A stretch of 64,000 nucleotides of DNA from Anaerolineales bacterium (GTDB lineage Bacteria > Chloroflexota > Anaerolineae > Anaerolineales > E44-bin32): NCBI GenBank assembly GCA_034430895.1, contig DAOUDW010000087.1, positions 4,408 through 68,407 of the forward strand. Direction: 5' to 3'. Position numbers and translations under genes: made by a program. Under the pieces are notes generated by a model. The model saw nothing but the letters and a program-made list of their open reading frames with translations. It was not told the DNA's origin and did not search any database. Positions 12,806-62,306 of the stretch are shown piece by piece (position 1 is the first letter of the stretch; the number at the start of each line of letters is the position of its first letter).

Positions 12806-12831
12806 CGAACGGATTTCCATTTTCGGCCAGC
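12806..12831 (+). repeat. short interspersed repeat, GAACGGATnnnCATTTTCGGCCAGC type
   Basis: gaacggatttccattttcggccagc matches 54943-54966 at 22 of 25 positions, and also matches 57641-57664. Confidence 0.6.
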
Positions 12832-12973
12832 GAAGCTCGTGCCCTTGAGCCTCCATCCACAAGGGAATATACTCTCTTCATTCGGGCTCGATTTTGTCTA
12901 CAATGTTCCAAGGACATGCAAGGATCACACCTCACCCGCCGGGTTGAAATGGCGCAGGAGGTGCGTAGGAGAT

Positions 12974-13597
12974 ATGTGTGTGGATGGCCGGCGTGCGTTT
13001 TTTGAATCCCTGGCGGAAGGATGGGACGCAGAGCAACCTCCTAATCGCTTCGAAGTACTGCGGCGGATGTTGGAGCCTTTTGAGGCGGAGTTGAGGATTG
13101 CCAAAGCGATCCTGGAAGTCGGCACCGGTACAGGGGCGCTCATCCCTCATCTTCAGGAGCGCGCCACAGCCGCGCGACTGGTCTCGATCGACCTGGCGCA
13201 AGCCATGCTGCAGCATGCCCGGAAGCGCTGCCCGGATGCCTTACTGATACAGTGTGATGTGCACCGGCTGCCCTTCCCTGCGGGGTCGTTCGAACGGGGA
13301 TTCGATTGGGTGATCTGCCACAACAGCTTCCCGCATTTCTCGGACCCATTTTCGGCTGCAGCCGACATGGCGCGTGTGCTCTGCCGTGGCGGTCGCCTGC
13401 TCATCGTGCACGACCTCGGCCGGGCGCAGGTCAATACCATCCATCGGGGCATACCGAACCGCTTCGTCAAGGACGATCTGCTCCCCAGCGGGGCCGAGCT
13501 GGCCGAGATGCTGGCGCGGCGTGGTTTTGAGGTCCTTCAAGTCAAAGACAGCGCGAACCGCTATGCCGTGCATGCACAAATTCCAGAATGCAGCTAG
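12974..13597 (+). CDS. class I SAM-dependent methyltransferase
   Basis: Motif I ILEVGTGTGALIP with a downstream acidic loop SIDLAQ. ATG at 12974 follows AGGAGG/AGGAG. Confidence 0.8.
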   Translation: MCVDGRRAFFESLAEGWDAEQPPNRFEVLRRMLEPFEAELRIAKAILEVGTGTGALIPHLQERATAARLVSIDLAQAMLQHARKRCPDALLIQCDVHRLPFPAGSFERGFDWVICHNSFPHFSDPFSAAADMARVLCRGGRLLIVHDLGRAQVNTIHRGIPNRFVKDDLLPSGAELAEMLARRGFEVLQVKDSANRYAVHAQIPECS

Positions 13598-13778
13598 CAA
13601 GCCGCACTCATATCCCACAGGTTGGGTTGAGGGTCACCGAAACCCCGCACCTCTCCCGCGACGTATCCGAATTCAAGAATTTGAGAAGAATGAACCATCG
13701 AAAGTTAGCTGGTGTCATTTGTACTTATTCATTATCATTGTTCAGGTTAATGAGATTTATGGTGGGAGGCGAAAGAGA

Positions 13779-14936
13779 ATGAATTTCACATCGCGGTCTT
13801 GCAGGCTCCATTCCGCTAGGGTAGGTGAGTATAAGAAATTAATTCTCCTGAGCGATACGATCGCGCTACTCTTTCTTGGAGGGGTCGTTGGCTGCGCGCC
13901 GATTCAAAGCGGGCGGGAGCAGGAGGCCTTGAATACGGCAGCTTCACTTGCACGCACAGAAACTGCAACTGCCGCCAAGATTATTAGCGCTCAGCTCACA
14001 GATACTCCTACAGTAACCATCACCTTTACACCACCGCCGTCGGATACTCCAACGAGTACGCATTCCCCAACGCCGGAAGCTGGTGCGACGATGGTTTCGG
14101 AAAAAGACAGCATGACGATGGTCTACGTTCCAGCGGGACCATTCCTGATGGGAAGTTCCGAAGAGGAAATTGATATTGTCTCGGAATATTGTACCGAGAA
14201 ACAAGAAGAAAATAACTCGCCCTATACTGACACGCGCCATGATCCATGCCAAATATCGAATTATGACGACGAGCGCCCTCAACTCGAGGTATACCTGGAT
14301 GCGTTTTGGATCGATCAAACAGAGGTTACCAATGCCCAGTATAAACAATGCGTAACCGAAGGGCAATGCCTGTCTCCAACGAGAGACTGCCAACCAATCA
14401 ATCCAACCTATCTGGATTCGGATATGGGGAACTATCCCGTTGTGTGTGTAGATTGGTCTGGCGCGCAGGCGTATTGCGAGTGGGCAGGTCGTCGCCTGCC
14501 AACGAATGCCGAGTGGGAGAAGGCAGCACGCGGGACCGATGGAAGGATTTATCCATGGGGCAACGATACTCCGAGATGCTATTTAGCCAATACGCAAGCT
14601 TGTGTCGCCATGGCGGATGAAGTTGGTCTCAGGCTTGAAGGCGCCAGTCCGTACGGCGCGTTGGACATGCTGGGCAATGTCTCGGAATGGGTGGCCGATT
14701 GGTATGATAAGGATTATTACACCTATTCACCGAAGGATAATCCCCCAGGGCCAATATCATGGAACACTGGCATTGAGTCGCAGGATTGGGAGGTCCGTGT
14801 TGTCCGGGGCGGTTCATATCGTATCAGATCCTGGTTGACGCGAGCAGCCGAGAGGCAATATCGCGGTATGGGGATAATAATGTATGGCAGTATTGGATTC
14901 CGCTGTGTATTGCCAACAACGCCGGAGGAAAATTGA
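13779..14936 (+). CDS. lipoprotein with formylglycine-generating-enzyme (FGE/SUMF1) domain
   Basis: MVYVPAGPFLMGS, FWIDQTEVTNAQY, PVVCVDWSGAQAYCEWAGRRLPTNAEWEKAARG, GNVSEWVADWY and RVVRGGSY. N-terminal lipobox GGVVGC and PT-rich linker. Confidence 0.85.
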   Translation: MNFTSRSCRLHSARVGEYKKLILLSDTIALLFLGGVVGCAPIQSGREQEALNTAASLARTETATAAKIISAQLTDTPTVTITFTPPPSDTPTSTHSPTPEAGATMVSEKDSMTMVYVPAGPFLMGSSEEEIDIVSEYCTEKQEENNSPYTDTRHDPCQISNYDDERPQLEVYLDAFWIDQTEVTNAQYKQCVTEGQCLSPTRDCQPINPTYLDSDMGNYPVVCVDWSGAQAYCEWAGRRLPTNAEWEKAARGTDGRIYPWGNDTPRCYLANTQACVAMADEVGLRLEGASPYGALDMLGNVSEWVADWYDKDYYTYSPKDNPPGPISWNTGIESQDWEVRVVRGGSYRIRSWLTRAAERQYRGMGIIMYGSIGFRCVLPTTPEEN

Positions 14937-14937
14937 T

Positions 14938-14963
14938 CTGTAAAGGGAAAAACCGATATCCAT
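14938..14963 (-). repeat. degenerate copy of the CCTGTAGGG-GGAAAAAC interspersed repeat
   Basis: ctgtaaagggaaaaaccgatatccat matches 57531-57556 at 19 of 26 positions. It lies at the distal edge of the triplicated cassette. Confidence 0.35.
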
Positions 14964-15009
14964 TTCAGGATGCGGAGGAATTCATTCGAACGGGTGCACA
15001 TTTTCAGCC

Positions 15010-15097
15010 AGGACAGCCGGGCACGGGAGAAGCGCAGGCCGATCAGGGCGCCAATAAACCCGAAGACGAAGAGCTAAGCGACCAATCCCCAATCCAT
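15010..15097 (-). pseudogene. decayed third copy of the 50-codon microprotein gene
   Basis: Same GGAGGTATAACCC-ATG-GAT-TGG context as 16190 and 17290, but TAG at codon 8 (ATG GAT TGG GGA TTG GTC GCT TAG). Homology fades after about 85 nt. Confidence 0.5.
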
Positions 15098-15100
15098 GGG

Positions 15101-15718
15101 TTATACCTCCGTTTCTTCCGTTGAAGTCTTCGTTGCCTGCTTCTGTTCCCAGATGCGGTGCGAAATCGCTTGCGCCCCTATCAACATTCCCAGGATTGTA
15201 AGGATTCCTACGGACAACATAACGTAATCACCCCTACCACGATGTGATGAATACAAACCCATCAACACGCCTGCCCCCGACAAAGGCACAATGACGCGCC
15301 GGACCACTTGCAGATAGATCTTTCCTGCTTTTGACCGCGGCGTCATCTGCTCACGCAGGATCACCGCAGAGATCCTTGAATCGATGTAGGGCAGGAACCA
15401 CGCCAATGCATACAACGCCAGCAGCAGCAGAACCCATCCTGTCGAAATCGGGGATACCCAATCAATCATGCGTAATCCGCTTGCAAACAATAACAACAGC
15501 CAGGCATTGAAACTGATCTCACGTCCCCACAGGAAGCGAGTTCTTGCTGTGAGAACCATGCCGCATGTTCCCAGGAATGTCAGCGAGATGGCTGTGACAA
15601 CCGAGGTGGTTGTTGGGCCCGGGGGAAAGATCGCTTCCAGCAACCCTATTCCACCCAGGACGAAAAGGGAAAGTGCGAGAATTTTCCATAGGGGCATCTT
15701 CCTGGCCGGGATTTTCAT
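15101..15718 (-). CDS. polytopic membrane protein, cassette paralog C
   Basis: Collinear with 16194-16838 and 17294-17917 (…ILREQMTP…SHRIWEQKQATKTSTEETEV). ATG at 15718 follows GAGGTGG. Confidence 0.6.
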   Translation of the reverse strand: MKIPARKMPLWKILALSLFVLGGIGLLEAIFPPGPTTTSVVTAISLTFLGTCGMVLTARTRFLWGREISFNAWLLLLFASGLRMIDWVSPISTGWVLLLLALYALAWFLPYIDSRISAVILREQMTPRSKAGKIYLQVVRRVIVPLSGAGVLMGLYSSHRGRGDYVMLSVGILTILGMLIGAQAISHRIWEQKQATKTSTEETEV

Positions 15719-15794
15719 CGATTGTCCACCTCGTTTGGGTTGTACTCTGTGCCCAATGATAGCAGGCAAATGGGATCATCACATATCTACCTAA

Positions 15795-15971
15795 TCACCC
15801 GCCAAACAACCCGCCGAAGAAATCTCCTACGGCATCGGCTGCATCGCCTACTGCAGATTTCACATTGTCGATCCCATTCTCAACCGCGGTTCCAATATTA
15901 TTGGCTGTCTGTTCGAGAGTTGTCGCCACATCGGTTACCGTATTTCGCACGTCATCACCTGGAATGGGCAA
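15795..15971 (-). other. orphan duplicate of the 3' end of gene 18004-21066 (58 codons, only a TTG start)
   Basis: Translates to LPIPGDDVRNTVTDVATTLEQTANNIGTAVENGIDNVKSAVGDAADAVGDFFGGLFGG*. It is collinear with the last 52 residues of the 1020-aa protein, and an in-frame TGA lies immediately upstream. Confidence 0.5.
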
Positions 15972-16190: not shown

Positions 16191-16193
16191 GGG

Positions 16194-17290: not shown

Positions 17291-17293
17291 GGG

Positions 17294-21066: not shown

Positions 21067-21349
21067 CTTCCACCCCTTGCGTTTCAGCCTGTATTAAACA
21101 CACACGAAGGCCGCAGGTTCCCCAGATCCGCGGCGACGGGCCTTCCGTCGAATTGTCCCTCTGGCCGGAAATACTGTGACCAGTCTACAACAATCCAAGA
21201 TGGGATTCAACACCTTTTCGGCGAAACGTCGCCGGGTTCGATCCATCAAGATCGCCATTCAGCGTAGGATCGCTCGTTGTCGAATTAAACCCACTATCGC
21301 GCCGCATAGTTACGGGAGTTTAACCGCAGGATTACCTTTTGGTAACTTC

Positions 21350-21450
21350 CTGCAGGGGGTCGACGCCGACCGCACGGCCTGCCTGGTCGAAGGAGTCACC
21401 ATGCAGGGCTGGTCCACGATGGGCTGGGTGGCCTGCAATCGGCTGTGTTT
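21350..21450 (+). pseudogene. fragment of the SH3b-like module (copy 3, about 33 codons, no start)
   Basis: LQGVDADRTACLVEGVTMQGWSTMGWVACNRLCF aligns with the C-termini of the 8868-9356 and 12377-12673 products. There is no upstream module and no RBS. Confidence 0.55.
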
Positions 21451-21592
21451 TTCTGAATCATTTGGTGTTCGTTAAAACCTGGATTCAACGACCAGGTGCA
21501 GCCTCATCCCACGTTGGTGTCGATATCCATTCACAACGTAGATTATCCTAACGATCTGCATACTTTCTCCCGGCAGTATGGAGTACGCCTTT

Positions 21593-21635
21593 TTGGATGA
21601 GGTATTTCATCACGGCTAATTTTTACCCTGCGCAC
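21593..21635 (+). repeat. degenerate copy of the GGAYGAGGT-TTTC interspersed repeat
   Basis: ttggatgaggtatttcatcacggctaatttttaccctgcgcac resembles 54854-54900 (ggacgaggttttccc...agtttttacccactaca). Confidence 0.3.
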
Positions 21636-21801
21636 TGCAACCAACTGCAGTACCTCCACGTATAGAAAATCGATCGGCTTGATATTGTCAGCAGGTCACC
21701 CCCATCCCTGGTTCCAGGTGGAAAGACGACATGGAGCGGTTATTGGGGACGGGTTAGAAAGAGACGAAATAAAAAATCACAGAACGAAGAAAGGAACATC
21801 A

Positions 21802-23160
21802 ATGAAACGGCTGTCAATTTTCATACTTATTTCAATGCTTATTACTTGCTGTCAACCAGGCAGTAATCTATTGGAAAATGAGCCTGAAAAATATCGAAGG
21901 GAACTTGATACATACATTACAGAAAAAATGAGTCATGTGCACGTTCCGGGGCTCGCCATTGGGATTATTGAAAAGAGCAAAATCATTTACACGCAGGGGT
22001 ATGGGTTGGCTGATATCGAGAATGGTATTCCTGTAACGGAGGAAACGCTTTTTCATCTAGGATCGATTTCCAAACTGGTAACCGCTACCGCAGTTATGAA
22101 ATTAGTTGAAGATGGATATATCGACCTTGATGAGGATATCAATACCTATCTGGACTTTGAAATCCGAAACCCGAATTTTCCTGAAGATAAAATCACGCCT
22201 CGTATGCTTCTTACGCACACTTCATCGATCATCGATGATGAAGAGATTTATGAAAGCCTGTACACCATTAATTCCGGTGGAGGTGATTCACCAATCAGTT
22301 TACGTGAATATTTGGAGAATAGTTTATCCAATTCCGGCAAGTGGTACTCTGAGAAGATTTATTTAGAAAGCAGACCCGGCACTGTTAATGAATACAGCAA
22401 CATTGGCTTTGCATTGGCGGGATATTTGGTCGAGGTGATTTCTGGCAAGCCTTTCAATGAATATTGCAACGAGAATATTTTCGACCCGCTTCGTATGGAC
22501 GATACTCGCTGGTTCTTATCGGAATTGGATACGGCAAAAATCGCTATCCCCTATCAATTCGAAAACGGAGAATTTTCTGCCTATCCGCATTATGGATTTC
22601 CCAGTTACCCGGACGGTCAGTTGAAGAGCAATGTGGTCGATCTGCTGTCTTTTCTGCAGTTCTTCCTGAACAATGGAGAAGGTTATGATGTTCCAGTATT
22701 GCAGGCAGCTACTATTGAGGAAATATTAAGGATCCAGGAGCCGGATGTTGATTATGGGCAGGCACTTGGTTGGAGCTACTCGGAATTCAATCTACCGATC
22801 GTTAATAATGCCTTCCTGCCGGCGAAAGGGGGGGAGGATCCGGGCGCCCGGGCGATTATCTTGTTCGATCCAATATCGAAATCAGGGTTTGTAATTTTAC
22901 TCAATCAAGAGTTGAAAGATTTCTGGACGGAACAAAGAGAAATATGTTTTGACCTGGTTAACAAACTCAAAGCGGATTTGGGGTTGAAGAACATGCACGG
23001 TATCAACGAATTACGAATTGGATCAATTGCGGCTGGTATCGCAGTGGTCGTAGTTGTTCTTGTATGGCTTGTCATCCCGAAACAGATATGTCCGCACTGT
23101 GGTCATAAATTTCATAAGTTCGAACGAAAATGTCCAAAATGCAGGGTAAAGAGACAATAG
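21802..23160 (+). CDS. serine hydrolase (class C beta-lactamase/PBP family) lipoprotein with C-terminal TM helix and zinc ribbon
   Basis: SxxK (GSISKLVTA) and YxN (EYSNIG). Lipobox LITCCQ. C-terminal IAAGIAVVVVVLVWLVI followed by CPHCGHKFHKFERKCPKC. Confidence 0.75.
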   Translation: MKRLSIFILISMLITCCQPGSNLLENEPEKYRRELDTYITEKMSHVHVPGLAIGIIEKSKIIYTQGYGLADIENGIPVTEETLFHLGSISKLVTATAVMKLVEDGYIDLDEDINTYLDFEIRNPNFPEDKITPRMLLTHTSSIIDDEEIYESLYTINSGGGDSPISLREYLENSLSNSGKWYSEKIYLESRPGTVNEYSNIGFALAGYLVEVISGKPFNEYCNENIFDPLRMDDTRWFLSELDTAKIAIPYQFENGEFSAYPHYGFPSYPDGQLKSNVVDLLSFLQFFLNNGEGYDVPVLQAATIEEILRIQEPDVDYGQALGWSYSEFNLPIVNNAFLPAKGGEDPGARAIILFDPISKSGFVILLNQELKDFWTEQREICFDLVNKLKADLGLKNMHGINELRIGSIAAGIAVVVVVLVWLVIPKQICPHCGHKFHKFERKCPKCRVKRQ

Positions 23161-23423
23161 ATGCAATGGTTCCTGCAATGCAATATTGGGACGGCATCAT
23201 GTATTCGATTACTATTGCAGATGGCTTGAAACAGACAATAGGATAACCATAACGAGAATTCGTTCCCACACCGGGCGGATTGGGCTTGCAAATTATTTAT
23301 TTCATAGTATTACGGTGTAAATCGTCGTATTTACGCTATGACAGCCCACACTTGGTTATCGTCGTTGATGCTGGTAGATTCGAGTTTATAATAAAGATGG
23401 CAACGAGGAAACGGAGGGCAGTT

Positions 23424-23645
23424 ATGGCACGCCAGGTTTGGCAGGTTCTCAAGACCAAGCACTGCGAACGCATCGGCGAGATCGCTTCGTTGGAAGTACA
23501 TCTCATCTTCCCGGACGATATCCTGCCGGACCAGGGGCCGCGGGTGATCGGCCATCGCTGCTCGCACGGTTTGCGCTGCAATCAACTCGATGCGCCCACC
23601 TGCCAATGGGCAGGGACGCTGCCGGGTTACGATCCGTTCCGTTAG
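23424..23645 (+). CDS. 73-aa Cys4 protein of unknown function (copy 1)
   Basis: GGAGGG RBS. MARQVWQVLKTKHCERIGEIASLEVHLIFPDDILPDQGPRVIGHRCSHGLRCNQLDAPTCQWAGTLPGYDPFR. Near-identical second copy at 28405-28626. Confidence 0.55.
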   Translation: MARQVWQVLKTKHCERIGEIASLEVHLIFPDDILPDQGPRVIGHRCSHGLRCNQLDAPTCQWAGTLPGYDPFR

Positions 23646-24233
23646 TTGTTCTGTGTCGCAAGATCGTTGAACTTCAATATTTTCAACTACCAATCAAGGA
23701 ATATGGGAAGGACCGAAAAGGTCCTTGCTTGTTTTATGGGGATAATTCGCCGCCTGGCGTATATTCGAGGACATTTATTAGAATGGACGCACATTTTCGG
23801 CCATTACAGGCTGATATCGGGCGTGGCACTTGGGTTGGGGGTGTCTGTTAGCGGCGCGGTCGGTTGCGGATTGGATGTTTGACTTGCAGTGATCGCAGTT
23901 AGAATCGACGTTTTCGTTGTACAACCCGCGATCACTAGGATCGAGATCGCGATCGCTGTGGTGGCATTTTTCTTCATAGTGAAAGCATACACCATACCAG
24001 CTTGATGTTCAAAACACGATACACCTACAGGGGAACTATCACGGCGGAGAGATCAGCGAACCTGCAACACGAACATCTTTCTGCTCGGCGATATCCTAAG
24101 CGACACCCGCTTCGGTGTTGACGATTTCGAGATCGGTGTCGTCAACGATTACTTGCCTAGTCTGCCTTGTTGCACCTCGGAGTTGAAACCAGGAATTAAG
24201 CTCTGGCGGAGTTACGCATGATCCGCATTCGTC

Positions 24234-24623
24234 TCATTCTTTATGCTCCCCCTGACACGACGAACAATAGCCAAATAGAATGAGGTGATTGGTGGTTAGC
24301 TGGAAATCAAAACGATCTTTAATCTCATTGAACATGGATTGGACGACTTCGTTTTCAAGCGTGATCACCTGCTGACAGCCCTGGCAAACCAGATGGTGAT
24401 GTGGAGAATTGCCCACCATTTCGTAAACCATGGCCCCTTTGCCCATGTCCGAGACCGAAACTTCGCCTGCATCGGTTAAGCGCTCCAAAGCTCGATATAC
24501 CGTGGAAGGATTTACACTCGGAAGACGTGGTTTCAGGCGCAAATAAATTTCCTGGGCAGTGAAATGCATGGGGCGTGATTGGAGCAACTCTACGATCAAT
24601 TGCTGTACTGAGCTTGATTTCAT
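24234..24623 (-). CDS. fur: Fur-family metal-responsive transcriptional regulator
   Basis: Winged-helix N-terminus (STVYRALERL), HHHLVCQGC and CSSC metal-site motifs, 129 aa. Confidence 0.85.
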   Translation of the reverse strand: MKSSSVQQLIVELLQSRPMHFTAQEIYLRLKPRLPSVNPSTVYRALERLTDAGEVSVSDMGKGAMVYEMVGNSPHHHLVCQGCQQVITLENEVVQSMFNEIKDRFDFQLTTNHLILFGYCSSCQGEHKE

Positions 24624-24645
24624 GGCTAAAATTATAATCCGTCAC

Positions 24646-24673
24646 GCAAGTTTTTGCATATGCAATAACTTGC
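24646..24673. promoter_or_regulatory. 28-bp near-perfect palindrome, candidate Fur-family operator in the divergent promoter region
   Basis: GCAAGTTTTTGCATATGCAATAACTTGC is self-complementary except for one position pair. It lies 23 nt upstream of the fur start and upstream of the ABC importer genes. Confidence 0.45.
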
Positions 24674-24763
24674 GTTATAATACTTGTCCTTTGTTATGGA
24701 TGCTCTTATTATAAAAAAAATCCATCTCGGTTATCAAATAAAGGAGTGGGTGGAGCATACGTA

Positions 24764-24938
24764 ATGAATCCGCAGCAACTTGAATCAGTCGCTCAATTTC
24801 ACAGGCATCTTTGCCCAGGGCTGGCTATTGGCGTACGCCGCATAACTTGCGGTGCGCGATATTCCTGCTCATACAGTCGATGAAGAAATCATCGCTATCG
24901 TCAAGACTGTTACGGAAAAGATCTCACATGGGAAATAA
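24764..24938 (+). pseudogene. frameshifted/truncated FmdE-domain gene remnant
   Basis: MNPQQLESVAQFHRHLCPGLAIGVRR carries the FmdE HxHxCPG motif. The frame then breaks and DIPAHTVDEEIIAIV continues in another frame. No C-terminal Cys-rich part is present. Confidence 0.45.
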
Positions 24939-26034
24939 ACCCATGCGTGAAGCAGCTTTCATCAACAGTAGCTCGTCGAACGGGGCGGCTGAAAACTTCC
25001 ACCGGCAGTCATCAAGCAAAAAGCGGCTCGTCCTGGGTTTATTTGTTCTGACAATCCTGCTGACGGTCGTCGCAATCAACGCCGGAGCCGCGGAAACCCA
25101 TCCCGTGCAGGTGCTGCGGACGCTATTGGGCCTGGAAAGCGGCCTTTCAGGCGTAGTAATCTGGAACATCCGGCTGCCGCGGGTCATCGCCGGGATTGTA
25201 TCTGGGGTCGGGCTGGCGCTGGCCGGCTGCGTGATGCAAACCAGCCTGCGTAACCCGCTGGCATCCCCGTTCACATTAGGCATCTCGAATGCGGCCGCCT
25301 TTGGCGCCAACCTGGCCATCGTGTTGTTCGGAGCCGGTACCTTGCACAGCAACACCCACGATGCAGTCTTCATCGCCAATCCCTACACCGTCACGGTGAG
25401 TGCCTTTGCCTTCTCGATGGCCGCCATGATGCTGATATTGTTCTTGGCACGGCTGCGTGGCTTTTCACCCGAATCGGTGGTGCTTGCGGGAGTGGCCTTC
25501 GGTTCGCTGTTCGCCGCTGGATCTGCCCTGGTACAGTACTTCGCTGAGGACGTGCAGGTGGCCGCTATGGTTTTCTGGACATTTGGTGATTTGGGACGCG
25601 TCTCTTGGCAGGAGGTAATCATCCTGACGCTGATTACTGCGGCCGCCTCGAGCTATTTTCTACTGCACCGCTGGAATTACAATGCCCTCGAAAGTGGCGA
25701 AGACGTTGCGAAAAGCCTGGGCGTTGATGTGGAACAGATCCGTTTTCGCAGCTTGCTCGCATCATCATTGGCCACTGCTGTGGCGGTCGCCTTTATGGGC
25801 ATTATCGGTTTCATCGGTCTGATCGCCCCCCAGATGATGCGCCGTGTGCTGGGAATCGATCACCGCTTCCTGCTCCCGGCAGCGGCTTTAACCGGAGCAA
25901 CCTTGCTGTTACTTGCTGATACCCTGGCGCGAACTTTGATATCACCGGTAATTTTACCGGTCGGTGCGATTACCTCTTTCTTCGGTGCGCCCTTATTCCT
26001 ATTCATTTTAGCGAAAGGCTATTCACGGCGATGA
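24928..26034 (+). CDS. FecCD/BtuC-family ABC importer permease (iron-siderophore/cobalamin type)
   Basis: Ten hydrophobic segments with family blocks RLPRVIAGIVSGVGLALAGCVMQ, NPLASPFTLGIS and IGFIGLIAPQMMR. The start is uncertain (24928 or 24943). Confidence 0.85.
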   Translation: MGNKPMREAAFINSSSSNGAAENFHRQSSSKKRLVLGLFVLTILLTVVAINAGAAETHPVQVLRTLLGLESGLSGVVIWNIRLPRVIAGIVSGVGLALAGCVMQTSLRNPLASPFTLGISNAAAFGANLAIVLFGAGTLHSNTHDAVFIANPYTVTVSAFAFSMAAMMLILFLARLRGFSPESVVLAGVAFGSLFAAGSALVQYFAEDVQVAAMVFWTFGDLGRVSWQEVIILTLITAAASSYFLLHRWNYNALESGEDVAKSLGVDVEQIRFRSLLASSLATAVAVAFMGIIGFIGLIAPQMMRRVLGIDHRFLLPAAALTGATLLLLADTLARTLISPVILPVGAITSFFGAPLFLFILAKGYSRR

Positions 26035-26783
26035 TCCTGCGTGTACAAGGGATTACGTTTCACTATCCGGGACGTCCGGTGTTGGATGATGCCAGCTTCA
26101 CGGTGGAAAAGGGTGAGGTGTTGGCAGTCCTGGGACCCAATGGAACGGGTAAGACCACGCTGCTCAAGTGTCTTAATCGCATTCTTGCCCCCGCAGCCGG
26201 AATGATATGGATCGGTGATGAACCCATTTCAAGCCTCAGCCGCAATGCTTTGGCGCAGAAGATCGGCTATGTGGAACAGCAGCGCGCTGGTTCACGAACC
26301 ACCGTTTTCAATGCAGTACTATTAGGTCGCAAACCGTACATCCGTTGGGACATTACCCAAAATGATATTGCAATTGCGAGCCAGGTGTTGGAACCCCTGG
26401 GGCTTTCTGAATATGCGTTACGCTACCTGGATGAATTGAGCGGCGGTGAACTGCAAAAGGTGGTGATTGCACGTGCCCTGGCGCAAGAACCCCAGATCCT
26501 GCTGATGGACGAACCCACGAGCAGCCTGGATTTGAAGAATCAGCTGGAGTTGATTGACCTTATCCGCCAGATTAGCCGTGAGCGCGGTATTGCCGCGGTG
26601 GTGGCAATGCACGATCTGAACCTTGCCTTACGATTCGCAGATCGCTTCATTCTGCTGAAGGATAAAACCATCTTCGCCGCGGGCGGACCGGACATTATAT
26701 CTCCTGAAACCATCGAATCTGTGTACGCTGTTCCCGTGGTGATCGCGAAACACAATGGCAACCGCGTTGTGGTGCCAATATAG
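26031..26783 (+). CDS. ABC transporter ATP-binding protein (FecE/FepC-like)
   Basis: Walker A GPNGTGKTT, signature LSGGELQ, Walker B ILLMDEPTSSLD and H-loop AMHD. Overlaps the permease stop by 4 nt. Confidence 0.9.
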   Translation: MILRVQGITFHYPGRPVLDDASFTVEKGEVLAVLGPNGTGKTTLLKCLNRILAPAAGMIWIGDEPISSLSRNALAQKIGYVEQQRAGSRTTVFNAVLLGRKPYIRWDITQNDIAIASQVLEPLGLSEYALRYLDELSGGELQKVVIARALAQEPQILLMDEPTSSLDLKNQLELIDLIRQISRERGIAAVVAMHDLNLALRFADRFILLKDKTIFAAGGPDIISPETIESVYAVPVVIAKHNGNRVVVPI

Positions 26784-26798
26784 ACACAACAAGCCCTT

Positions 26799-27938
26799 AT
26801 GGTCATGGAGAGAGGAACCATCGTGAAAAAAACCGTTTTCATCATCGTACTGCTGCTCGTTATCACCTCGCCTGGATTAAACGGGTGCAACCCCGGATTA
26901 CAAAATGAAGACGCAAACGTCATCGTGACTGATCTATTGGGGCGTGAAGTATCCATACCTACAACAGTAACCCGCGTGGTCGCCATCGGGCCGGGCGCGT
27001 TGCGCCTCTACGTCTACGCCGGGAATCTGGATTATGTTGTCGGTGTGGAACAAATCGAAGCCGAGCGTCCTACTGGAAGACCATATTTACTTGCACACCC
27101 CGAGCTGGCGAATTTGCCCGTCATCGGTCAAGGAGGCCCAAACAATGCTACGGACCCGGAGAAAATCCTGTTGATCGAGCCAGATGTAATCCTCAGCACG
27201 TATGTTGTAGATATGGCCGCGGCTGATGAGCTGCAAGCCAAGACTGGCATCCCCGTGGTTGCGATCAGTTATGGCTATGCCGGCTTTGGTATAACCAATC
27301 TCGCCGGGCCGGAAGTACCAGAATCGTTGCTGTTGATTGGACGGGTTATTGGCGACGAAACCAGAGCGCAAGCGGCTGTGGCCTTTTTACAACAAGTCCT
27401 GCAGGATCTGGACGAACGCACAATCGATATCCCTGAAGAAGATAGACCCTCGGTGTATGTGGGTGGCCTGGGCTCCAAGGGAACGCATGGTATCGAAAGC
27501 ACTCAGGGTGACTACTCCCTGCTGAATGTCATTCACGCCAAGAACATGGTGGATGAAACCGGGGTTAGCGGGTCCATTATGATCGACAAGGAGAAGTTAT
27601 TGGTCTGGGACCCGGACTTCATCTTTATCGACCAGGGCGGATGGGCGGCAATTGTTGAAGATTATCAAAAGAATCCTGTATATTACGAATCACTATCGGC
27701 AGTCCAGAATGGCAGAGTTTATTCACAACTGCCGTACAATTACTACAATACCAATATTGATACAGCGATCGCTGACGCTTATTATTTGGGGAAAATTCTC
27801 TACCCCATTGCCTTTGCAGATATTGATCCTTCGGAGAAAGCTGACGAAATCTACCTCGCTTTGTTGGGCCAACCCGTTTGCGCTCAGATGGCAGCTGATT
27901 TTGGCGGTTTCAGCGAACTATCCTTGGGCGATTCGTAA
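26799..27938 (+). CDS. periplasmic-binding-protein (cluster A-2, iron-siderophore/B12 type) lipoprotein
   Basis: Lipobox LNGC and a PBP_2-like pattern (RVVAIGPGALRLYVYAG, PDVILSTY). Third gene of the importer operon. Confidence 0.75.
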   Translation: MVMERGTIVKKTVFIIVLLLVITSPGLNGCNPGLQNEDANVIVTDLLGREVSIPTTVTRVVAIGPGALRLYVYAGNLDYVVGVEQIEAERPTGRPYLLAHPELANLPVIGQGGPNNATDPEKILLIEPDVILSTYVVDMAAADELQAKTGIPVVAISYGYAGFGITNLAGPEVPESLLLIGRVIGDETRAQAAVAFLQQVLQDLDERTIDIPEEDRPSVYVGGLGSKGTHGIESTQGDYSLLNVIHAKNMVDETGVSGSIMIDKEKLLVWDPDFIFIDQGGWAAIVEDYQKNPVYYESLSAVQNGRVYSQLPYNYYNTNIDTAIADAYYLGKILYPIAFADIDPSEKADEIYLALLGQPVCAQMAADFGGFSELSLGDS

Positions 27939-28404
27939 AGGAGAATACAAGGGCGAATCTCAGAGTTTTCCGATGGGTGTATTGGCCGAATTTGAACATC
28001 TTCTACGCAATGCAGTCATGGTCTTGGCTTCTTGATTGGAAAGGCTGATCGTGATTTCATTTCTCCACCATTTATATGAAACCAACCTGTATATGATTGA
28101 ATGGCATATAAATCTTACAAATAGATATTTGACATTATCATAACCATCTTGTAATTTCGGGCAGCATCAGCTATTTAATATTTGGGAACACTACATCCAG
28201 ATGATGTTATTCCCTGAAATATAAAAATGGGGTAAGGTCATATTTTTGGTTGTGAATTTGGATTCTATATTTTCGTTTCATAGTATTACGGTGTAAATCA
28301 TCGTATTTGCTTTGTGACAGTCAACACTTGGGGGCGGTTGCACTTGGGTGTAGATTCCGATGTATGATATAGTAGCGAGCGTGATGAGGGAACGGAGGTC
28401 GATC

Positions 28405-28626
28405 ATGGCACGCCAGGTTTGGCAGGTTCTTAAAACCAAACACTGTGAACGCATCGGCGAGATCGCTTCGTTGGAAGTACATCTCATCTTCCCGGCCGAT
28501 ATCCTGCCGGACCAGGGGCCGCGGGTGATCGGCCATCGCTGCTCACACGGTTTGCGCTGCAATCAACTCGATTCGCCCACCTGCCAGTGGGCAGGGACGC
28601 TGCCGGGTTACGATCCTTTCTGTTAA
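28405..28626 (+). CDS. 73-aa Cys4 protein of unknown function (copy 2)
   Basis: Differs from copy 1 at 3 of 73 residues. The shared upstream block tttcatagtattacggtgtaaatc is also duplicated. Confidence 0.55.
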   Translation: MARQVWQVLKTKHCERIGEIASLEVHLIFPADILPDQGPRVIGHRCSHGLRCNQLDSPTCQWAGTLPGYDPFC

Positions 28627-38711: not shown

Positions 38712-39053
38712 TCAAGCGAGTTGGTCACATCTTGCGGCGAAGATGAAATCCGCTTCGCTGAGGCCGCCGATGGAATGGGTCCAGATGGTGATTTTCGCTT
38801 TCCCCCAGGTGAGGCAAATCTCGGGATGATGATCCACGCTTTCGGCCAACTCGCCCACGGCGTTGGTGAAATCGAGCGCTTGCTGAAAATCAGTGAATTT
38901 GAAGGTCTTTTCCAGGTGGTGTTCATCGATGATCTGCCAATCGCCCCCGAGCTGCTCGCGGATGGCGTTCAATTTATCCCCCTTTAACGGCGCTGCACCT
39001 TTACGAGGCGGTTTGAGTTCTCTGCGCGCGAGTTCGGACATGGTTGACTCCAT
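38712..39053 (-). CDS. 4a-hydroxytetrahydrobiopterin (pterin-4a-carbinolamine) dehydratase
   Basis: FKFTDFQQALDFTNAVGELAESVDHHPEICLTWGKAKITIWTHSIGGLSEADF. Confidence 0.85.
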   Translation of the reverse strand: MESTMSELARRELKPPRKGAAPLKGDKLNAIREQLGGDWQIIDEHHLEKTFKFTDFQQALDFTNAVGELAESVDHHPEICLTWGKAKITIWTHSIGGLSEADFIFAARCDQLA

Positions 39054-39196
39054 TTTAATTAGACAAGTATTGTCTACATTTTATCACGCGGGATTTTGGT
39101 TTCTACAACGCTATTTCACTTAAATTATAATATTGTCATTTGGTAAACTTATGCTTTAAAAACAATCAAATGAAATCTGTAATAGTCCTTTGCCGC

Positions 39197-39223
39197 CCTG
39201 TAGGGGGGAAAAACCTCATCCGG
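39197..39223 (-). repeat. interspersed repeat copy (inverted orientation) upstream of the giant gene
   Basis: cctgtaggggggaaaaacctcatccgg is the reverse complement of 55190-55215 at 24 of 26 positions. It merges into the palindrome GAAAAACCTCA-TCCGGA-TGTAGTTTTC. Confidence 0.6.
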
Positions 39224-39493
39224 ATGTAGTTTTCTATGCTATACGATATTTAGGGTAGCTGAAGGTTCAAGATGGTTATGATAATGTCAGTTGTAGAAAC
39301 ATAAGGAGCGGAACCCACCAGATTGAGATAACACTCCGCTGAAAAATCATTCGATTTTCAAGCTCCCTCTTTTCCAATTTGTTATCCAAAAAAACAATAA
39401 CATTCCAGCCCGTTCGACGCAAGGAAAGCCATAACAGGGATACAAGCGTCGTTGGTTTACCGCAGGGTTACCGTTGTATTACCGTTTGGTAAC

Positions 39494-57529: not shown

Positions 57530-57557
57530 CCTGTAGGGAGGAAAAACTATATCCGTG
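57530..57557 (-). repeat. interspersed repeat copy (inverted orientation)
   Basis: cctgtagggaggaaaaactatatccgtg. Confidence 0.55.
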
Positions 57558-57603
57558 TTAAAATCCGGCGCAAACTCACCCTGTAGTATGGGAATATTTT
57601 ATT

Positions 57604-57664
57604 AGGATGATGTTTTTCTACCCAACAAGGTCATTTTTATAGAACGGATGTACATTTTCGGCCA
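57604..57664 (+). repeat. interspersed repeat composite (GGATGATGTTTTTC... plus GAACGGATGTACATTTTCGGCCA)
   Basis: Same two-part architecture as 54909-54966. It overlaps the annotated start of the 57648 ORF. Confidence 0.6.
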
Positions 57665-58007
57665 TCACAATGGCTATTACGATGCCTGTGCTGTGATGAT
57701 CCGTCGACTCTTAGAAACCTTAATCATCGAATGCTATGAGGTACACAAGATCGCCGATGATATTTTGGATGCTAGTGGTGACTTTGTGAGATTGGATAAG
57801 CTTATCGATTGCTTCCTCTCTCAAAAGGAATGGAACATAGGCCGCGACACAAAAAAGCAGTTGAAGAAACTACCATCAATCAAAGGCGTTGGAGATCGAT
57901 CTGCCCATAATAGACGATATATAGCTTCAAAAGATGATATTGATCGAATTGCTGATGATACTAGGTTAGCTATACAGGAACTAGTATCTATTGCATTCGA
58001 AAAGTGA
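57648..58007 (+). CDS. DUF4145/HEPN-like domain protein (possibly N-terminally truncated)
   Basis: GYYDACAVMIRRLLETLIIE and IKGVGDRSAHN resemble the DUF4145 blocks (aca...R.llE / lR..GN.aaH). The start codon lies inside a repeat that also occurs at 54943. Confidence 0.45.
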   Translation: MYIFGHHNGYYDACAVMIRRLLETLIIECYEVHKIADDILDASGDFVRLDKLIDCFLSQKEWNIGRDTKKQLKKLPSIKGVGDRSAHNRRYIASKDDIDRIADDTRLAIQELVSIAFEK

Positions 58008-58136: not shown

Positions 58137-59312
58137 TTACAATTGATTGTGTTCTTCACTGTCTGTGTATATGTACTGCTTACGATAACTTTCCCTCAAC
58201 TCATCGATAACCAGTAATTCATTATCTTCTGACGCAAAATACCAGTTCTGCCACCCATTGCATGGACTACCACCCATCAAATGCTTTCCCGCTTGATGGA
58301 TTGAACCCTCAAACCCATCTGAAAGCCGAAGTTTTCCATCTGGTTTAATAAAGGCATTTCTTGCACGATCCTTCTGGAAAAATAGCTGCTGCCCTGGCAG
58401 CAAATAATTTGTTTCAAGCAAATTCGCAAAACCAACACGCGGGGCTAAGCGTTTTTTATCGCTTACATCAAACACATCATCAGCCCGTGGCTCGGATAGC
58501 ATCGGTTTTACGTCATCAATTCGTTTTTTAGCAATCTTGATGTAGTCTCTGTCCTGCTCAATCCCAATCCAATGGCGGTGAAGCTTCTTTGCTACGGCTC
58601 CTGTTGTACCAGTTCCAAAAAATGGATCCAAGACAATATCTCCCTTTTGTGTCGATGCAATTAAGACACGAAATAACAAGGCTTCTGGTTTTTGAGTTGA
58701 GTGGGCTTTCTTGCCACCCTTTTTTTTGATTCTCTCAGCTCCTGAGCAGATTGGTAAAACAAATTGTCTCGGAATTGGCCAGTCACTGCGAAGCTGTTTT
58801 CCTTCATTAAACTCTTTCATCGCATGATGATTGAATGAATATTTTGCACCTTTTGATTTGCTAGCCCATATTAGCGTTTCATGGGCATTCGTCAAACGAA
58901 CTCCTCGGAAATTTGGCATAGGATTCGTTTTAATCCAAACTACGTCATTTAAGATCCAATAACCCAAGTCTTGGATGATTTTCCCAATTCGATATATATT
59001 GTGATAAGTTCCTATCACCCAAATAGTTCCTGTATCCTTTAGTACCCGCTTGCATGCGTTTAACCACTTTTTACTAAAGAGGTCGTATTCACCATTGTTT
59101 TCAAACTGATCCCATGAATCATTTACAGCGTCAACTTGCGTCATATTAGGACGCCATAATTCGTTTTGTAGCTGAAGATTGTATGGAGGATCGGCGAAAA
59201 CGAGATCAACAGAGCTTTCGGGAAGAGAGTTCAGTACCTCAATACAATCCCCTTGGATTATCTGATCTACTGGCAATTCGTTTTTCATAATGATTTTAGT
59301 AATACCTGTCAA
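58137..59312 (-). CDS. beta-class N6-adenine DNA methyltransferase, CcrM/M.HinfI family
   Basis: Motif IV VFADPPYNL precedes motif I DPFFGTGTTGAVA (beta-class order). The C-terminal RVGFANLLE...LPGQQLFF...PDGKL...GSIHQAGKHL...CNGWQNWYF is the CcrM-type extension. Confidence 0.85.
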   Translation of the reverse strand: MTGITKIIMKNELPVDQIIQGDCIEVLNSLPESSVDLVFADPPYNLQLQNELWRPNMTQVDAVNDSWDQFENNGEYDLFSKKWLNACKRVLKDTGTIWVIGTYHNIYRIGKIIQDLGYWILNDVVWIKTNPMPNFRGVRLTNAHETLIWASKSKGAKYSFNHHAMKEFNEGKQLRSDWPIPRQFVLPICSGAERIKKKGGKKAHSTQKPEALLFRVLIASTQKGDIVLDPFFGTGTTGAVAKKLHRHWIGIEQDRDYIKIAKKRIDDVKPMLSEPRADDVFDVSDKKRLAPRVGFANLLETNYLLPGQQLFFQKDRARNAFIKPDGKLRLSDGFEGSIHQAGKHLMGGSPCNGWQNWYFASEDNELLVIDELRESYRKQYIYTDSEEHNQL

Positions 59313-60171
59313 TTCTTTCTAACAATGATTTTGCTAGATTCTGATACTCATCAGATTTCTGCTTAGAAAAATGGCCAAACAACAACATCAGGGTCGTCCC
59401 CTCGCTGAATAATACACGAATAATACCATCAGCCCAAATCTGTTCATTCGATATCAGTTTTCTCCAATAATGTAGCCGGATTGATTTGATATCTTCGAAA
59501 CTCTCTCGTGGTGATGCATCGAGATCAATTTCAGGAAAGTCATCGAGCTCCCTCCTCCAATCTGTTAGCCAAGATACAAATTCGAACCAAACTGTAGGGA
59601 AACTTAGGTATGTGAACAAATCCTTTCCATAGAACAGGTACAGGTCTAGGCCGTAAATATCCTTTAATTTGTCCAATTGCTCCTGGTAGAACGATTTGCT
59701 TTTTGAAAAGGCTGGATCAACAAAGTACATGATGCCGATTAGATTCTTATGATGCTCTTGGTAGAGCCGATCTAGTTTCTCCTCGAAATTCTTTATCTGA
59801 CCACGCTTCTTTGTTGAGTCATGATCATCCCGCATTTTTTGCTCAATAAAGAAGTGTTTTTTTCCTTTCGCGAAGTATTGATCCAATGATAGCGATGTTT
59901 TATCATCGATGTTGAGAACAAGATCAAGGTTAGTATATCCTTGCTCCGCAAGGATTTCTCGCAGCAATAGTTCAATAGCATCCCCGAACCGAATCTCGTG
60001 AGATTGCAATAGATTTTGAATTATCTTCGCCCGAGGCTTCGTCGGTCGAAAATCACCCAGGTATCTCTCCGGATTCAAAGCAAGTTTCTCAATAATGTTT
60101 ATCTTATCGGCTTCGAATACCTGAGAGTGCAGAAGCCTTATTGCTTTCTTGGAATCCATTCCTAACCCCAC
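59296..60171 (-). CDS. uncharacterised protein, candidate PD-(D/E)XK restriction endonuclease partner of the methyltransferase
   Basis: SLDQYFAKGKKHFFIEQKMRDDHD gives a D-x13-E-x-K arrangement. The gene overlaps the methyltransferase by 17 nt and the upstream gene by 10 nt. Confidence 0.4.
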   Translation of the reverse strand: MGLGMDSKKAIRLLHSQVFEADKINIIEKLALNPERYLGDFRPTKPRAKIIQNLLQSHEIRFGDAIELLLREILAEQGYTNLDLVLNIDDKTSLSLDQYFAKGKKHFFIEQKMRDDHDSTKKRGQIKNFEEKLDRLYQEHHKNLIGIMYFVDPAFSKSKSFYQEQLDKLKDIYGLDLYLFYGKDLFTYLSFPTVWFEFVSWLTDWRRELDDFPEIDLDASPRESFEDIKSIRLHYWRKLISNEQIWADGIIRVLFSEGTTLMLLFGHFSKQKSDEYQNLAKSLLERIDRYY

Positions 60172-60971
60172 GGGATTTTAATGTACCGATGGAGCTTCGT
60201 GCTCCCGATGTTCTCTAATAGCCAGATCTCATCCTCATCAGGTGTTGATTCAGTAATTGCCTTGACAAAAAGGACTAGGAATAGTTGATCGAGCTTTCTA
60301 TGGTATTCTTGTCTATCTTCCTCGTATGGAAAAATGAACCTCACGATGGCAGTTGTCTCATCAACCAGATACGCCTTCCCTTTCTTCTTTGCAGCTTCAG
60401 CTTTGGTTAATACTCCGTCGCCAGTTCGAAATCGGCCTCCAACATGCGAGACAGAGTATCCCCAGAACAGGTCACTTGCTTCGCGAGCAACCCGCTTGTA
60501 GTAATCCGGTATGGATTCGCCATCTTCAAATTCATAAATTGGCGTCAAATCATCAAGATTGGTAGCCTCAAGCCTCTCAATGAGCGTATCTTCGTAAAAG
60601 AGATTATCCAAATTCTGCCGCAGCAGATTCTCATTTCGTAGAGGAAGGTAAAAATCGTAGATCTTTACTAGGTCATGTATTACATGATTATATTTGGAGA
60701 ATATCTGATTTTTCTGCCGGAAGAGATCACGAAAATCAGCCAGCAAGATTAATTTAATATTTCGATCAACATAATACTTCCTGTCAACCATTAAGGTTCC
60801 TGGCTCGAACTTGTCTACAAGGAATTCTCTGATTCTCTTGGAAATATTCGTGGACAAATTCTTTTGTGACCAACCTGTGTAATTTAACAATTCGCGGAAT
60901 ATTATCTCATTTCCTGCTTGCGCTTGGAGATATTCATAACACTTATCGATCTTTCGGAAATTCCTTGGCAT
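60162..60971 (-). CDS. hypothetical protein (269 aa), first gene of the methyltransferase operon
   Basis: Long AT-rich ORF with an N-terminal HTH-like segment (IIFRELLNYTGWSQKNLSTNISKRIREFL). No family recognised by eye. Confidence 0.45.
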   Translation of the reverse strand: MPRNFRKIDKCYEYLQAQAGNEIIFRELLNYTGWSQKNLSTNISKRIREFLVDKFEPGTLMVDRKYYVDRNIKLILLADFRDLFRQKNQIFSKYNHVIHDLVKIYDFYLPLRNENLLRQNLDNLFYEDTLIERLEATNLDDLTPIYEFEDGESIPDYYKRVAREASDLFWGYSVSHVGGRFRTGDGVLTKAEAAKKKGKAYLVDETTAIVRFIFPYEEDRQEYHRKLDQLFLVLFVKAITESTPDEDEIWLLENIGSTKLHRYIKIPWG

Positions 60972-61130
60972 TAGAAATCCTTTCGGCCAATGTCAATGAT
61001 TTGCCTAGGTGTAACCCGGCCTTGATTAAATTAACCCCACTTTCAATACCGATAATAAACTAGCACTAGGCAAATCTGGTTATTTCCTGGGTAGGATTTA
61101 GCAAGTTCTATCACGACGAGCTCTTATCTC

Positions 61131-61859
61131 TTAGAGAATGAAATCAGTATCAGTTTTTAGTGATTCATGTTCGTAATCTTTAGCAAGAGATTCATAATCA
61201 TAAAATGCAATCCGCTCAGAGATTGAATGAAAGGCGGTACGATTTACTTTATCGTGGAATTCGCGACGTCGAGAAGAATGAGCAACGATGATCAAACGAG
61301 TATTGAAGTCTTGAAGATCAAAAAATTTCAGTAATGAATTCTGGAAGTCAGTTGAATGTTCAATTTCGAATAAGCTATGAGGCATATGTCGATTATTAAA
61401 CCAACTTACATCGATTGTCGATGCACGCTTAACTAAGTCCTTATAAGTGAATATCGGGATCTTCTGTAAACTCCTAATTTCTTGAAGATGACAATTTAGA
61501 CAAAGCTTGTTCTTGTCCTGATTTGGTATGAATGTAGAATAGCCTCGCAAATTTCCAAGAGTAGCCAATAGCCCCTGATAATACGAGTGACTTAAAGTAA
61601 TAGACTCTTTCGACAAATCGATCTCATTATCTTCAGAGAAAAGTCCTAAACGACTTCGATATGACTCCAATGCCCAAAGACCTGGTCGAACCTTGAATAT
61701 CTCAGGTCTAACTTGAACAATGCGCCTTATTGAAGCATGTGGAGTTTTGGTTCTCCATTCAACCCCAGGAACCTTTAATGCTTCCCTATATAGCTGGGCT
61801 AAAGTGGCTTGACCGCCAAGACGATCTAATGTTTGAATAACTGCCTCATACTGCTTCAT
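61131..61859 (-). CDS. winged-helix (Mrr_N/HARE-HTH-like) plus nuclease-like C-terminal domain protein
   Basis: N-terminus MKQYEAVIQTLDRLGGQATLAQLYREAL...RPGLWAL. C-terminus IDVSWFNNRHMPHSLFEIEHSTDFQNSLLKF is a D...E-x-E/H arrangement seen in restriction-fold proteins. Confidence 0.5.
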   Translation of the reverse strand: MKQYEAVIQTLDRLGGQATLAQLYREALKVPGVEWRTKTPHASIRRIVQVRPEIFKVRPGLWALESYRSRLGLFSEDNEIDLSKESITLSHSYYQGLLATLGNLRGYSTFIPNQDKNKLCLNCHLQEIRSLQKIPIFTYKDLVKRASTIDVSWFNNRHMPHSLFEIEHSTDFQNSLLKFFDLQDFNTRLIIVAHSSRRREFHDKVNRTAFHSISERIAFYDYESLAKDYEHESLKTDTDFIL

Positions 61860-62134
61860 ATTTATAGATTGTACATTACGACAAGGTGAAATACGGATTG
61901 TCGTCGTATGGTTTTGAACTTCCAAGTTATGTGCTTATGATAGGGAGGTCCTCGCCATAAATACCAACCGCTAACCAAGTATATATAAATCATTCCCCTT
62001 TGCTATATAGATATTTCCAAATTGACGGGTTAATGTATCCTCGGAGGTGTTATGTCGAAATTTTACATAGCATACACTTTCATGCATGCGTAATCAAGCG
62101 GCCATCTATTTTGACACTTTTCTTTCGAGAGTTT

Positions 62135-62306
62135 TATAAAGCATAATATGGCCGGATTACTGGGGAAACTCAGCTTGAAAGCTCTTAGAAATAAAGCATA
62201 ATGTGGCCGAAAGTGCAAAAATAAAGCACAAGCTGGCCGTAAGTTCTTTAAACATCCTTTTCGTCAATACCGATTCTACACGGACAAGGTTTTTCCACCC
62301 TACAGG
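62135..62306 (+). repeat. iteron-containing repeat unit U3 (direct repeat of U1)
   Basis: Iterons at 62135, 62190 and 62221 have the same spacing as in U1, followed by ACACGGACAAGGTTTTTCCACCCTACAGG. Confidence 0.75.

Follow-up and report, generated by a model that had tools for sequence, protein, structure and literature searches.

Short interspersed repeats beside accessory genes of an Anaerolineales bacterium as probable ends of IS481-like insertion sequences

Introduction

Bacterial genomes contain several kinds of short dispersed repeat. Repetitive extragenic palindromic (REP) elements and bacterial interspersed mosaic elements (BIMEs) are imperfect palindromes that form hairpins and occur in hundreds of intergenic copies. 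Insertion sequences (ISs) of the IS481 family, such as IS481 of Bordetella pertussis, are listed in ISfinder and produce short direct target duplications of 4-15 bp, and Tn7-like transposons combine a TnsB-type transposase with TnsC and TniQ/TnsD partners. IS481-related elements are reported to possess TGT...ACA termini and a single DDD/E transposase (PMC10045372). Here we analyse a stretch of 64,000 nucleotides from an Anaerolineales bacterium (assembly GCA_034430895.1, contig DAOUDW010000087.1, positions 4,408 to 68,407; the whole stretch is hereafter called the window), in which two short interspersed motifs, A (ACGGAYGAKGTTTTTCCMCCCTACAGG) and B (GAACGGATnnnCATTTTCGGCCAGC), recur near accessory genes. 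We report that A and B very probably represent the terminal inverted repeats of a pair of sister insertion sequences, IS481-like and here named IS-A and IS-B, and that the copies in the window are ordinary mobile-DNA debris with no dedicated function of marking module edges.

IS-A and IS-B resemble the IS481 family in that each has one open reading frame (ORF) with an rve-type DDE core, for which IS481 is the best-scoring model, measures 1.1-1.5 kb, has TGT...ACA termini (PMC10045372) and imperfect inverted repeats about 27 bp long, and has given rise to non-autonomous derivatives. They differ from it in that the transposase scores under the curated cut-off and target duplications were not seen; moreover, only orphan ends occur in the window, and the window's own assembly contains no IS-A transposase. 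This assembly, G000, comprises 3.7 Mb with 52% GC in 116 contigs, and was compared with five relatives of the same genus, including G002, G003, G004 and G005; every one of these genomes is an incomplete assembly.

Full-length elements bounded by motifs A and B

Both elements encode one DDE (rve-type) transposase each and terminate in 5'-TGT...ACA-3'. IS-B is about 1.46 kb long (1450-1467 bp across three copies), with the left repeat TGTGCTGGCCGAAAATGTACATCCGTTC and the right repeat ...GCATGGATGAGATTTTTCGGCCAGCACA, and IS-A about 1.1 kb (1107-1111 bp), with the left repeat (CC)TGTAGGGWGGAAAAACTATATCCGT and the right repeat ACGGAYGAGGTTTTTCCMCCCTACA(GG). The inverted repeat of IS-B is motif B plus ACA, and that of IS-A is motif A, whose GGAYGAGG form represents the right end of the element and whose GGATATAG form represents the left. 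The two motifs have the core CGGAT-N4-TTTTC in common and both finish in ACA; this shared core is the reason why an earlier note on this DNA took B for a companion motif of A. The final GG of the motif given there varies and is probably flanking sequence.

For IS-B, contig C2 of G000 carries at 5097-6563 an inverted pair of B motifs around an open frame of 412 codons, which was scored as 394 residues after trimming of the first 18 codons, located inside the inverted repeat. The top NCBIfam model for this protein is the IS481 family transposase (98.9 bits, E = 3.6e-28), followed by IS3 with 77.5 bits, and the Pfam domains rve_3 and rve are both present. Two intact copies are found in G005, one at L037:12181-13639 with an open frame of 405 codons (405 aa) and one at L035:13510-14959 with 435 codons. 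Further G000 copies are either collapsed at the start of a contig (C2, C84) or partial (C108, C90). More than 7,000 metagenomic relatives of the IS-B transposase carry the name 'putative transposase', mainly on contigs of 1.2-2 kb. The similarity of every genomic B copy breaks off exactly past ...CAGCACA. The idea that B is a conserved coding N- or C-terminus was discarded: frames are open across some copies, yet the similarity ends at ACA whatever the frame.

A full IS-A is found in G003 (L005, reverse strand, 415-1525), where a left repeat CCTGTAGGGATGAAAAACTATATCCGT and a right repeat ACGGATGAGGTTTTTCCACCCTACAGG surround a transposase reading frame; the right repeat begins 7 nt past the stop codon of the transposase (...GGIIHDYYRCAA and stop). 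The A2 variant of the motif (CCTGTAGGGATGAAAAACTATATCCGT) thus precedes the same gene that motif A follows. A second IS-A, 86% identical, is located in G002 (C122), besides fragments at contig ends, and BLAST matches to the 1111-bp element begin at 1-3 and end at 1109-1111. The same end bases delimit a miniature IS-A of about 170 bp in G003 (C56). The transposases of IS-A and IS-B are 32% identical; full IS-A was seen only in the same-genus genomes G003 and G002, and full IS-B on C2 of G000 and in G005. Since inverted pairs of the motifs enclose transposase genes and the copies begin and end at the same bases, we assign A and B as terminal inverted repeats. In an intact element, the transposase would bind these repeats, cut at TGT/ACA and move the element.

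Several observations weigh against this assignment. The 98.9 bits of the IS-B transposase fall under the curated NCBIfam cut-off of 224 bits for IS481, and we therefore regard IS-A and IS-B as distant members of the family. Target-site duplications were not seen in flanks of up to 25 bp around three copies of IS-B and one copy of IS-A, nor around the miniature element; later recombination between copies may have removed those of IS-A and IS-B. The IS-A transposase was not found in the assembled contigs of G000, so that the A copies of this genome are not tied to an autonomous element of the same genome. Transposition of either element is something that we infer from sequence and did not observe. 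Lastly, motif A recurs in two species about 40 bp inside two types of multi-site end (X and Y, described below), a recurrence that could reflect a role in these ends.

Distribution in the genome and the genus

In the 3.7 Mb of G000 motif A has 23 copies and motif B 28, compared to 1 and 0 in a reversed-genome control. The copies are biased towards contig ends (61% of A and 46% of B lie within 2.5 kb of one, with 12% expected), and A, B and a third repeat family with ends of the types X, Y and W cluster together in the genome. Motif A is present in all five same-genus genomes and in none of 35 genomes of other genera. Two processes could generate a clustering by accessory blocks: insertion sequences would accumulate in dispensable DNA, and IS-A fragments lodged in the ends of cargo transposons would be copied with each move of the cargo.

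This distribution bears on a proposal of the earlier note, that the motifs are binding sites of a regulator common to surface-protein and toxin loci. Intergenic copies do lie upstream of several genes, those at 39197, 57530 and 21593 being next to genes for a pterin dehydratase, a patatin and a beta-lactamase-family protein, respectively, but these downstream genes are functionally unrelated, the motif is genus-restricted, low in copy number and biased to contig ends, and transposases are enclosed by inverted A or B pairs whose similarity stops sharply at TGT/ACA. We consider such a regulatory code very unlikely.

Just as improbable is that A and B are REP-like elements mobilised by a RAYT-type tyrosine transposase, or invertase sites that flip the blocks between them. 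The case for the latter is that opposed copies flank 14.9-21.6 kb and 39.2-55.2 kb. Neither motif is palindromic or folds (minimum free energy 0 to -0.2 kcal/mol), however, and the REP-like option thus finds no hairpin in the unit and some 25 copies per motif in place of hundreds; no recombinase gene is present in the window, and the opposed stubs are just 74% identical over 103 bp. Neither regulator sites nor recombination or inversion sites find support, since full elements with a transposase between A- or B-type pairs exist. A CRISPR-like repeat or structured RNA was likewise dismissed, as A and B contain no hairpin and the window yielded no Rfam match.

Copies of the motifs in the window

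Neither an IS-A nor an IS-B transposase is present in the window. Its copies instead fall into four classes: solo left ends of IS-B (12807, 14988, 23781, 54944 and 57642); 3'-end stubs of IS-A, consisting of a decayed transposase tail and the right repeat (39197-39299 on the minus and 55115-55216 on the plus strand, and, degraded, 21529-21620 and 28134-28222); a miniature IS-A; and short IS-A fragments situated about 40 bp inside multi-site ends of the third repeat family (54661, 54854 and 62280). The individual features are as follows.

12807-12831, plus strand: degenerate solo IS-B left repeat without the terminal ACA, shared with G002
14937-14963, minus strand: degenerate repeat of the IS-A left-end type, a GGATATCG variant with insertions and deletions
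14988-15015, plus strand: solo IS-B left repeat ending ...GGACA; its terminus at 15015 is the homology breakpoint with G002 and with cassette repeats
21529-21620, plus strand: decayed IS-A 3'-end stub (transposase tail and degraded right repeat), inside a 6.9-kb segment missing in G002 and about 180 bp from its left edge
23781-23808, plus strand: solo IS-B left-end remnant (GAATGGACGCACATTTTCGGCCATTACA)
28134-28222, plus strand: another decayed IS-A 3'-end stub, also inside this 6.9-kb segment and about 60 bp from its right edge
39197-39299, minus strand: IS-A 3'-end stub, right repeat 39197-39223, terminus toward the left
54633-54687, plus strand: IS-A fragment within an X end, right repeat 54661-54687
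54830-54879, plus strand: IS-A mini-fragment of about 50 bp, right repeat 54854-54879, which some Y ends have and others do not
54910-54971, plus strand: degenerate A-like repeat, then IS-B left repeat (54944-54971)
55115-55216, plus strand: IS-A 3'-end stub, right repeat 55190-55216, 74% identical to the inverted stub 39197-39299
57530-57630, plus strand: 101-bp miniature IS-A without an ORF, left repeat 57530-57556, degenerate right repeat 57603-57630
57642-57669, plus strand: IS-B left-end repeat, whose ATG opens a truncated DUF4145 ORF
62253-62306, plus strand: IS-A fragment within a variant X end, right repeat 62280-62306

The short repeat family first described in the earlier note is real. 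Motif A is matched with one mismatch each at 39197 (minus), 54661, 55190 and 62280 (all plus), and motif B at 12807, 54944 and 57642 and, with 3 mismatches, at 14988 (all plus); the chance expectation for such strong copies is 0 in 100 dinucleotide-preserving shuffles. When the genome was scanned with a position weight matrix trained solely on copies off the window contig, that is, from the relatives and other contigs of G000, the window copies scored 44.6 bits (39197), 43.1 bits (62280), 40.3 bits (57530), 40.1 bits (55190), 39.5 bits (54661), 22.6 bits (57603), 18.0 bits (54854, in which the T-run is one T short) and 13.9 bits (14937). In the reversed-genome control the matrix gave 2 matches of at least 14 bits genome-wide, with a maximum of 20.1 bits.

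The two weakest copies that had been listed, at 14938 and 21593, are genuine though decayed. The score of the former is borderline, and it is its context that speaks for it, 24 nt from the B-like end 14988-15015 whose terminus is the synteny breakpoint with G002. The latter scores below 8 bits as a motif, which is background level, but lies inside a degenerate IS-A stub of significant similarity: the alignment of 21529-21583 with the unit 55127-55180 scores 42 compared to 14.8 +/- 2.0 in shuffles, so that the region can be read as a decayed copy of a larger unit bearing motif A. Three further copies, at 14988-15015, 23781-23808 and 28134-28222, are absent from the earlier list. The statement that all copies are intergenic holds for most, with the exceptions of the B end at 57642, which supplies the start codon of an ORF, and of 14988-15015, which abuts a cassette repeat. 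A palindrome around TCCGGA at the 39.2-kb copy is part of the 10-bp CATCCGGATG located at the inner edge of one inverted-repeat subfamily; it folds no better than shuffles (z = -0.55).

Among the explanations put forward earlier, a MITE-like element (miniature inverted-repeat transposable element) pointed in the right direction: the motifs are IS terminal inverted repeats, and the pair 57530-57630 is a true miniature derivative, short, non-coding, equipped with left and right IS-A repeats and found in multiple copies. It lies 11 nt inside the IS-B end at 57642, with which it forms a 144-bp composite; among the matches listed, the composite recurs in full or in part on 16 other contigs of G000. 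As in MITEs and solo repeats derived from bacterial insertion sequences, these 101 bp carry IS-A-type repeats, no ORF and a long hairpin (z = -2.1). Unlike MITEs, no target duplication was seen, the copy number is low and most copies in the window are single ends. At 57648-58007, an ATG in the IS-B end (GGATGTACATTTTC...) opens an ORF of 119 aa whose remainder is a DUF4145 domain from profile position 11, probably a gene truncated by the insertion and restarted from the IS end.

A large insertion and the edges of accessory modules

Copies of the motifs had been said to mark the edges of most accessory modules. Their association with accessory DNA is genuine, but indirect; the true edge of the large insertion, at 39114, belongs to a different repeat family and is located 83 bp from an A copy. 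The boundaries and multi-site ends concerned are the following.

39109-39113, no strand: 5-bp target-site duplication CGCTA of the large insertion, partner at C1:367-371
39114-39196, plus strand: degenerate X-type left end of an insertion of at least 25 kb (TTTCACTTAAATTATAATATTGTCA...), with an intact homologue in G002 contig C83
54285-54326: hairpin repeat GTAGGTTGGGTTGAGGAACGAAACCCAAC, directly past the Rhs stop codon
54488-54632, plus strand: X-type end, TGTCACTTAAAGGATAATTTGGCCG then three further AAAGCATAAnnTGGCCG sites
54686-54829, plus strand: Y-type end without the terminal site, three tAGCATATnnTTGCCG sites
62097-62252, plus strand: variant X-type end, 84% identical to 54518-54685 in direct orientation

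All five same-genus relatives have the homologue of G000 C1:367-6045 no more than about 100 bp past their pterin dehydratase gene (38712-39053 in the window). In G000 this junction is split: the window resumes at 39114 via the degenerate X-type end, and C1 arrives via a Y-type end finishing at C1:366, with CGCTA on both sides. We conclude from the split junction and this repeat that everything from 39114 to the end of the window belongs to a single insertion or to several stacked ones, at least 25 kb in all. It is missing from this site in all five relatives, and its genes have no DNA match in three of them, save for repeats and a weak methylase match. Both of its ends belong to the third family (TGTSACTTAA... 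ends with 3-4 subterminal sites) and not to A or B; besides the giant Rhs gene, its cargo comprises a patatin-like lipase, a DUF4145 fragment, an N6/N4 methylase operon and an orphan Rhs piece. The whole spans 39109-64000 of the window and C1:1-371, and assembly gaps interrupt its interior where other insertion sequences lie.

That the block 14.9-21.6 kb and the Rhs block are each flanked by oppositely oriented copies is literally correct, but the insertion does not end at 54.7 kb and continues past the end of the window. This corrects the accessory boundaries: a single insertion, starting at 39114, takes in the Rhs gene, the patatin/methylase block and also the orphan Rhs piece. A decayed composite transposon, with the Rhs gene between the inverted IS-A stubs 39197/55216, was rejected as possible but unsupported, given that a target duplication is missing and that the two stubs share just 74% identity. 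The region 54270-55220 is a mosaic, in which a hairpin repeat, a second repeat, an X-type end, an A fragment, a truncated Y-type end, an A fragment, an IS-B end and an IS-A stub succeed each other from left to right. Its hairpin repeat GTAGGTTGGGTTGAGGAACGAAACCCAAC, probably a terminator-like dispersed repeat, is found again on at least 8 contigs of G000, and the relatives contain dozens of copies. The ORF 62334-62483 was considered as an antitoxin and dropped, having no Pfam match.

A homologue of the giant Rhs protein in G005 (L035:3-12323, contig C11) is 76.5% identical up to residue 4532 of 4825 and has a different C-terminal tip. It resides on another contig, again beside Y-end, A and IS-B sequences; since the dehydratase site of G005 is empty, the location of the Rhs gene differs between the two species. 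At the start of C1 another multi-copy IS (end GATAATGTCTCATAAAGTGG..., gene start MTNSNMTLLEYLRK; G000 C1:1-165, L042-L045) has cut an A copy after TTTTC. The gene at this position was evaluated as the island's own transposase and dropped, as it belongs to this other IS, which is also found at three or four contig ends in G004.

Elsewhere in the window G002 lacks 13695-15015 and 21349-28284, the first of which ends exactly at the IS-B terminus 15015, and the second of which has an IS-A stub just inside each edge. The edges of other strain-specific segments are direct repeats of gene 3' ends, with IS stubs only nearby: 9147-9357, 12464-12674 and 21350-21452 repeat the 3' end of the gene at 8583-9356, and 23300-23644 and 28276-28625 form a separate 350-bp pair. 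Edges of segments missing in G002 or G005 coincide with these repeats, an arrangement suggestive of repeated integration events at attachment sequences that had been duplicated, although the window showed no integrase. Through the absence of 13695-15015, the syntenic G002 locus lacks the C-terminal 1.3 kb of a gene with an FGE-sulfatase domain (13374-14936). Such C-type-lectin-fold tails are common targets of diversity-generating retroelements.

A third repeat family with multi-site ends

Ends of the third family, in the types X, Y and W, combine a TGTSACTTAA... terminus with 3-4 subterminal sites, each about 20 bp long. Examples include 39114-39138 and 54488-54632 in the window, C44:2724-4544, C75:62495-66132 and C48 up to 2873 in G000, L040:599-3998 and L038:583-3364, and such termini number about 30-44 in G000 compared to 3 in the control. 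The cargo includes single lipoprotein genes (466-1104 aa), an ABC-transporter/TetR module and the large island, all without a transposase. Target duplications are 5 bp long, with CGCTA/CGCTA at the island, GGTTT/GGTTT in G005 (C6) and 4 of 5 positions matching for two further elements, and the termini of adjoining units are separated by 5-7 bp.

In their TGT/ACA termini, their 3-4 subterminal repeats of about 20 bp per end, their 5-bp duplications, their transposase-less cargo and their insertion just past a conserved gene, the X/Y/W elements, and not A or B, are akin to mobile insertion cassettes and to elements with Tn7-, Tn5053- or Mu-type ends. They differ from Tn7-, Tn5053- and Mu-type elements in that no TnsB/MuA-type domain, TniQ or large rve protein was found in six genus genomes. 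Searches with PF09299 (TnsB-type) and PF06527 (TniQ) gave no matches in G000-G005, which are incomplete assemblies, and the control search with PF09299 matched no control genome; an rve protein of more than 435 aa was not found in the six genus genomes. Tn7/CAST-like ends had been contemplated for A and B themselves, as the stacked sites resembled TnsB sites, and were discarded in the light of the missing TnsB/TniQ matches and of A and B being plain IS inverted repeats. The idea that Y ends are a pure promoter/operator array for lipoprotein genes was also dropped, as matching W ends lie downstream of the genes and 5-bp duplications are present.

The relationship between motif A and these ends permits a different interpretation, in which A is a working part of the X/Y/W ends, serving as an additional binding site for the transposase or as a promoter or operator directed inward, selected at about 40 bp inside the last subterminal site and marking edges by design. 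The combination of an X end with A recurs (54488-54687, 62097-62306, C93:30094-30264 and G005:C6), as does that of a Y end with A (about 9 loci); A faces the downstream gene at several loci, and in the M6-type unit a TATAGAAT box precedes it by 9-10 nt. Set against this, X and Y ends free of A exist and are bounded alike, which argues that A was inserted into those ends and is not an original part of them. At the left end of the island (39114-39223) A has the opposite orientation, and in M6-type units a decayed tail of the IS-A transposase gene lies directly upstream of A, so that the TATAGAAT box is probably left over from the 3' end of this gene, with its stop region, and is not a promoter. 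On balance we consider a built-in function of A unlikely, and retain the assignment of A as an IS-A repeat.

Somewhat less improbable, though still doubtful, is a combined scenario in which the A and B debris lies in and around a new family of transposase-less cargo transposons (X/Y/W), and an IS481-like transposase may act on this family in trans through the IS-A repeat embedded in its ends. No other candidate transposase was found. A different IS481-like element on G000 contig C88 (1841 bp) encodes a 408-aa transposase and carries two or three 22-bp subterminal repeats (TATCARGACATRGGTAACAC) per end; multi-site ends thus occur with IS481-type transposases in G000.

Implications

If A and B are the ends of insertion sequences, a false lead is removed: the motif would be insertion-sequence debris, and surface and toxin loci would share no regulatory code or recombination signal in it. 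IS-A and IS-B themselves would be new, distant members of the IS481 kind, an ordinary feature that persists in the window mainly as debris. The X/Y/W cargo elements represent the more interesting lead. This family may explain the spread of surface-lipoprotein genes within this uncultured lineage.

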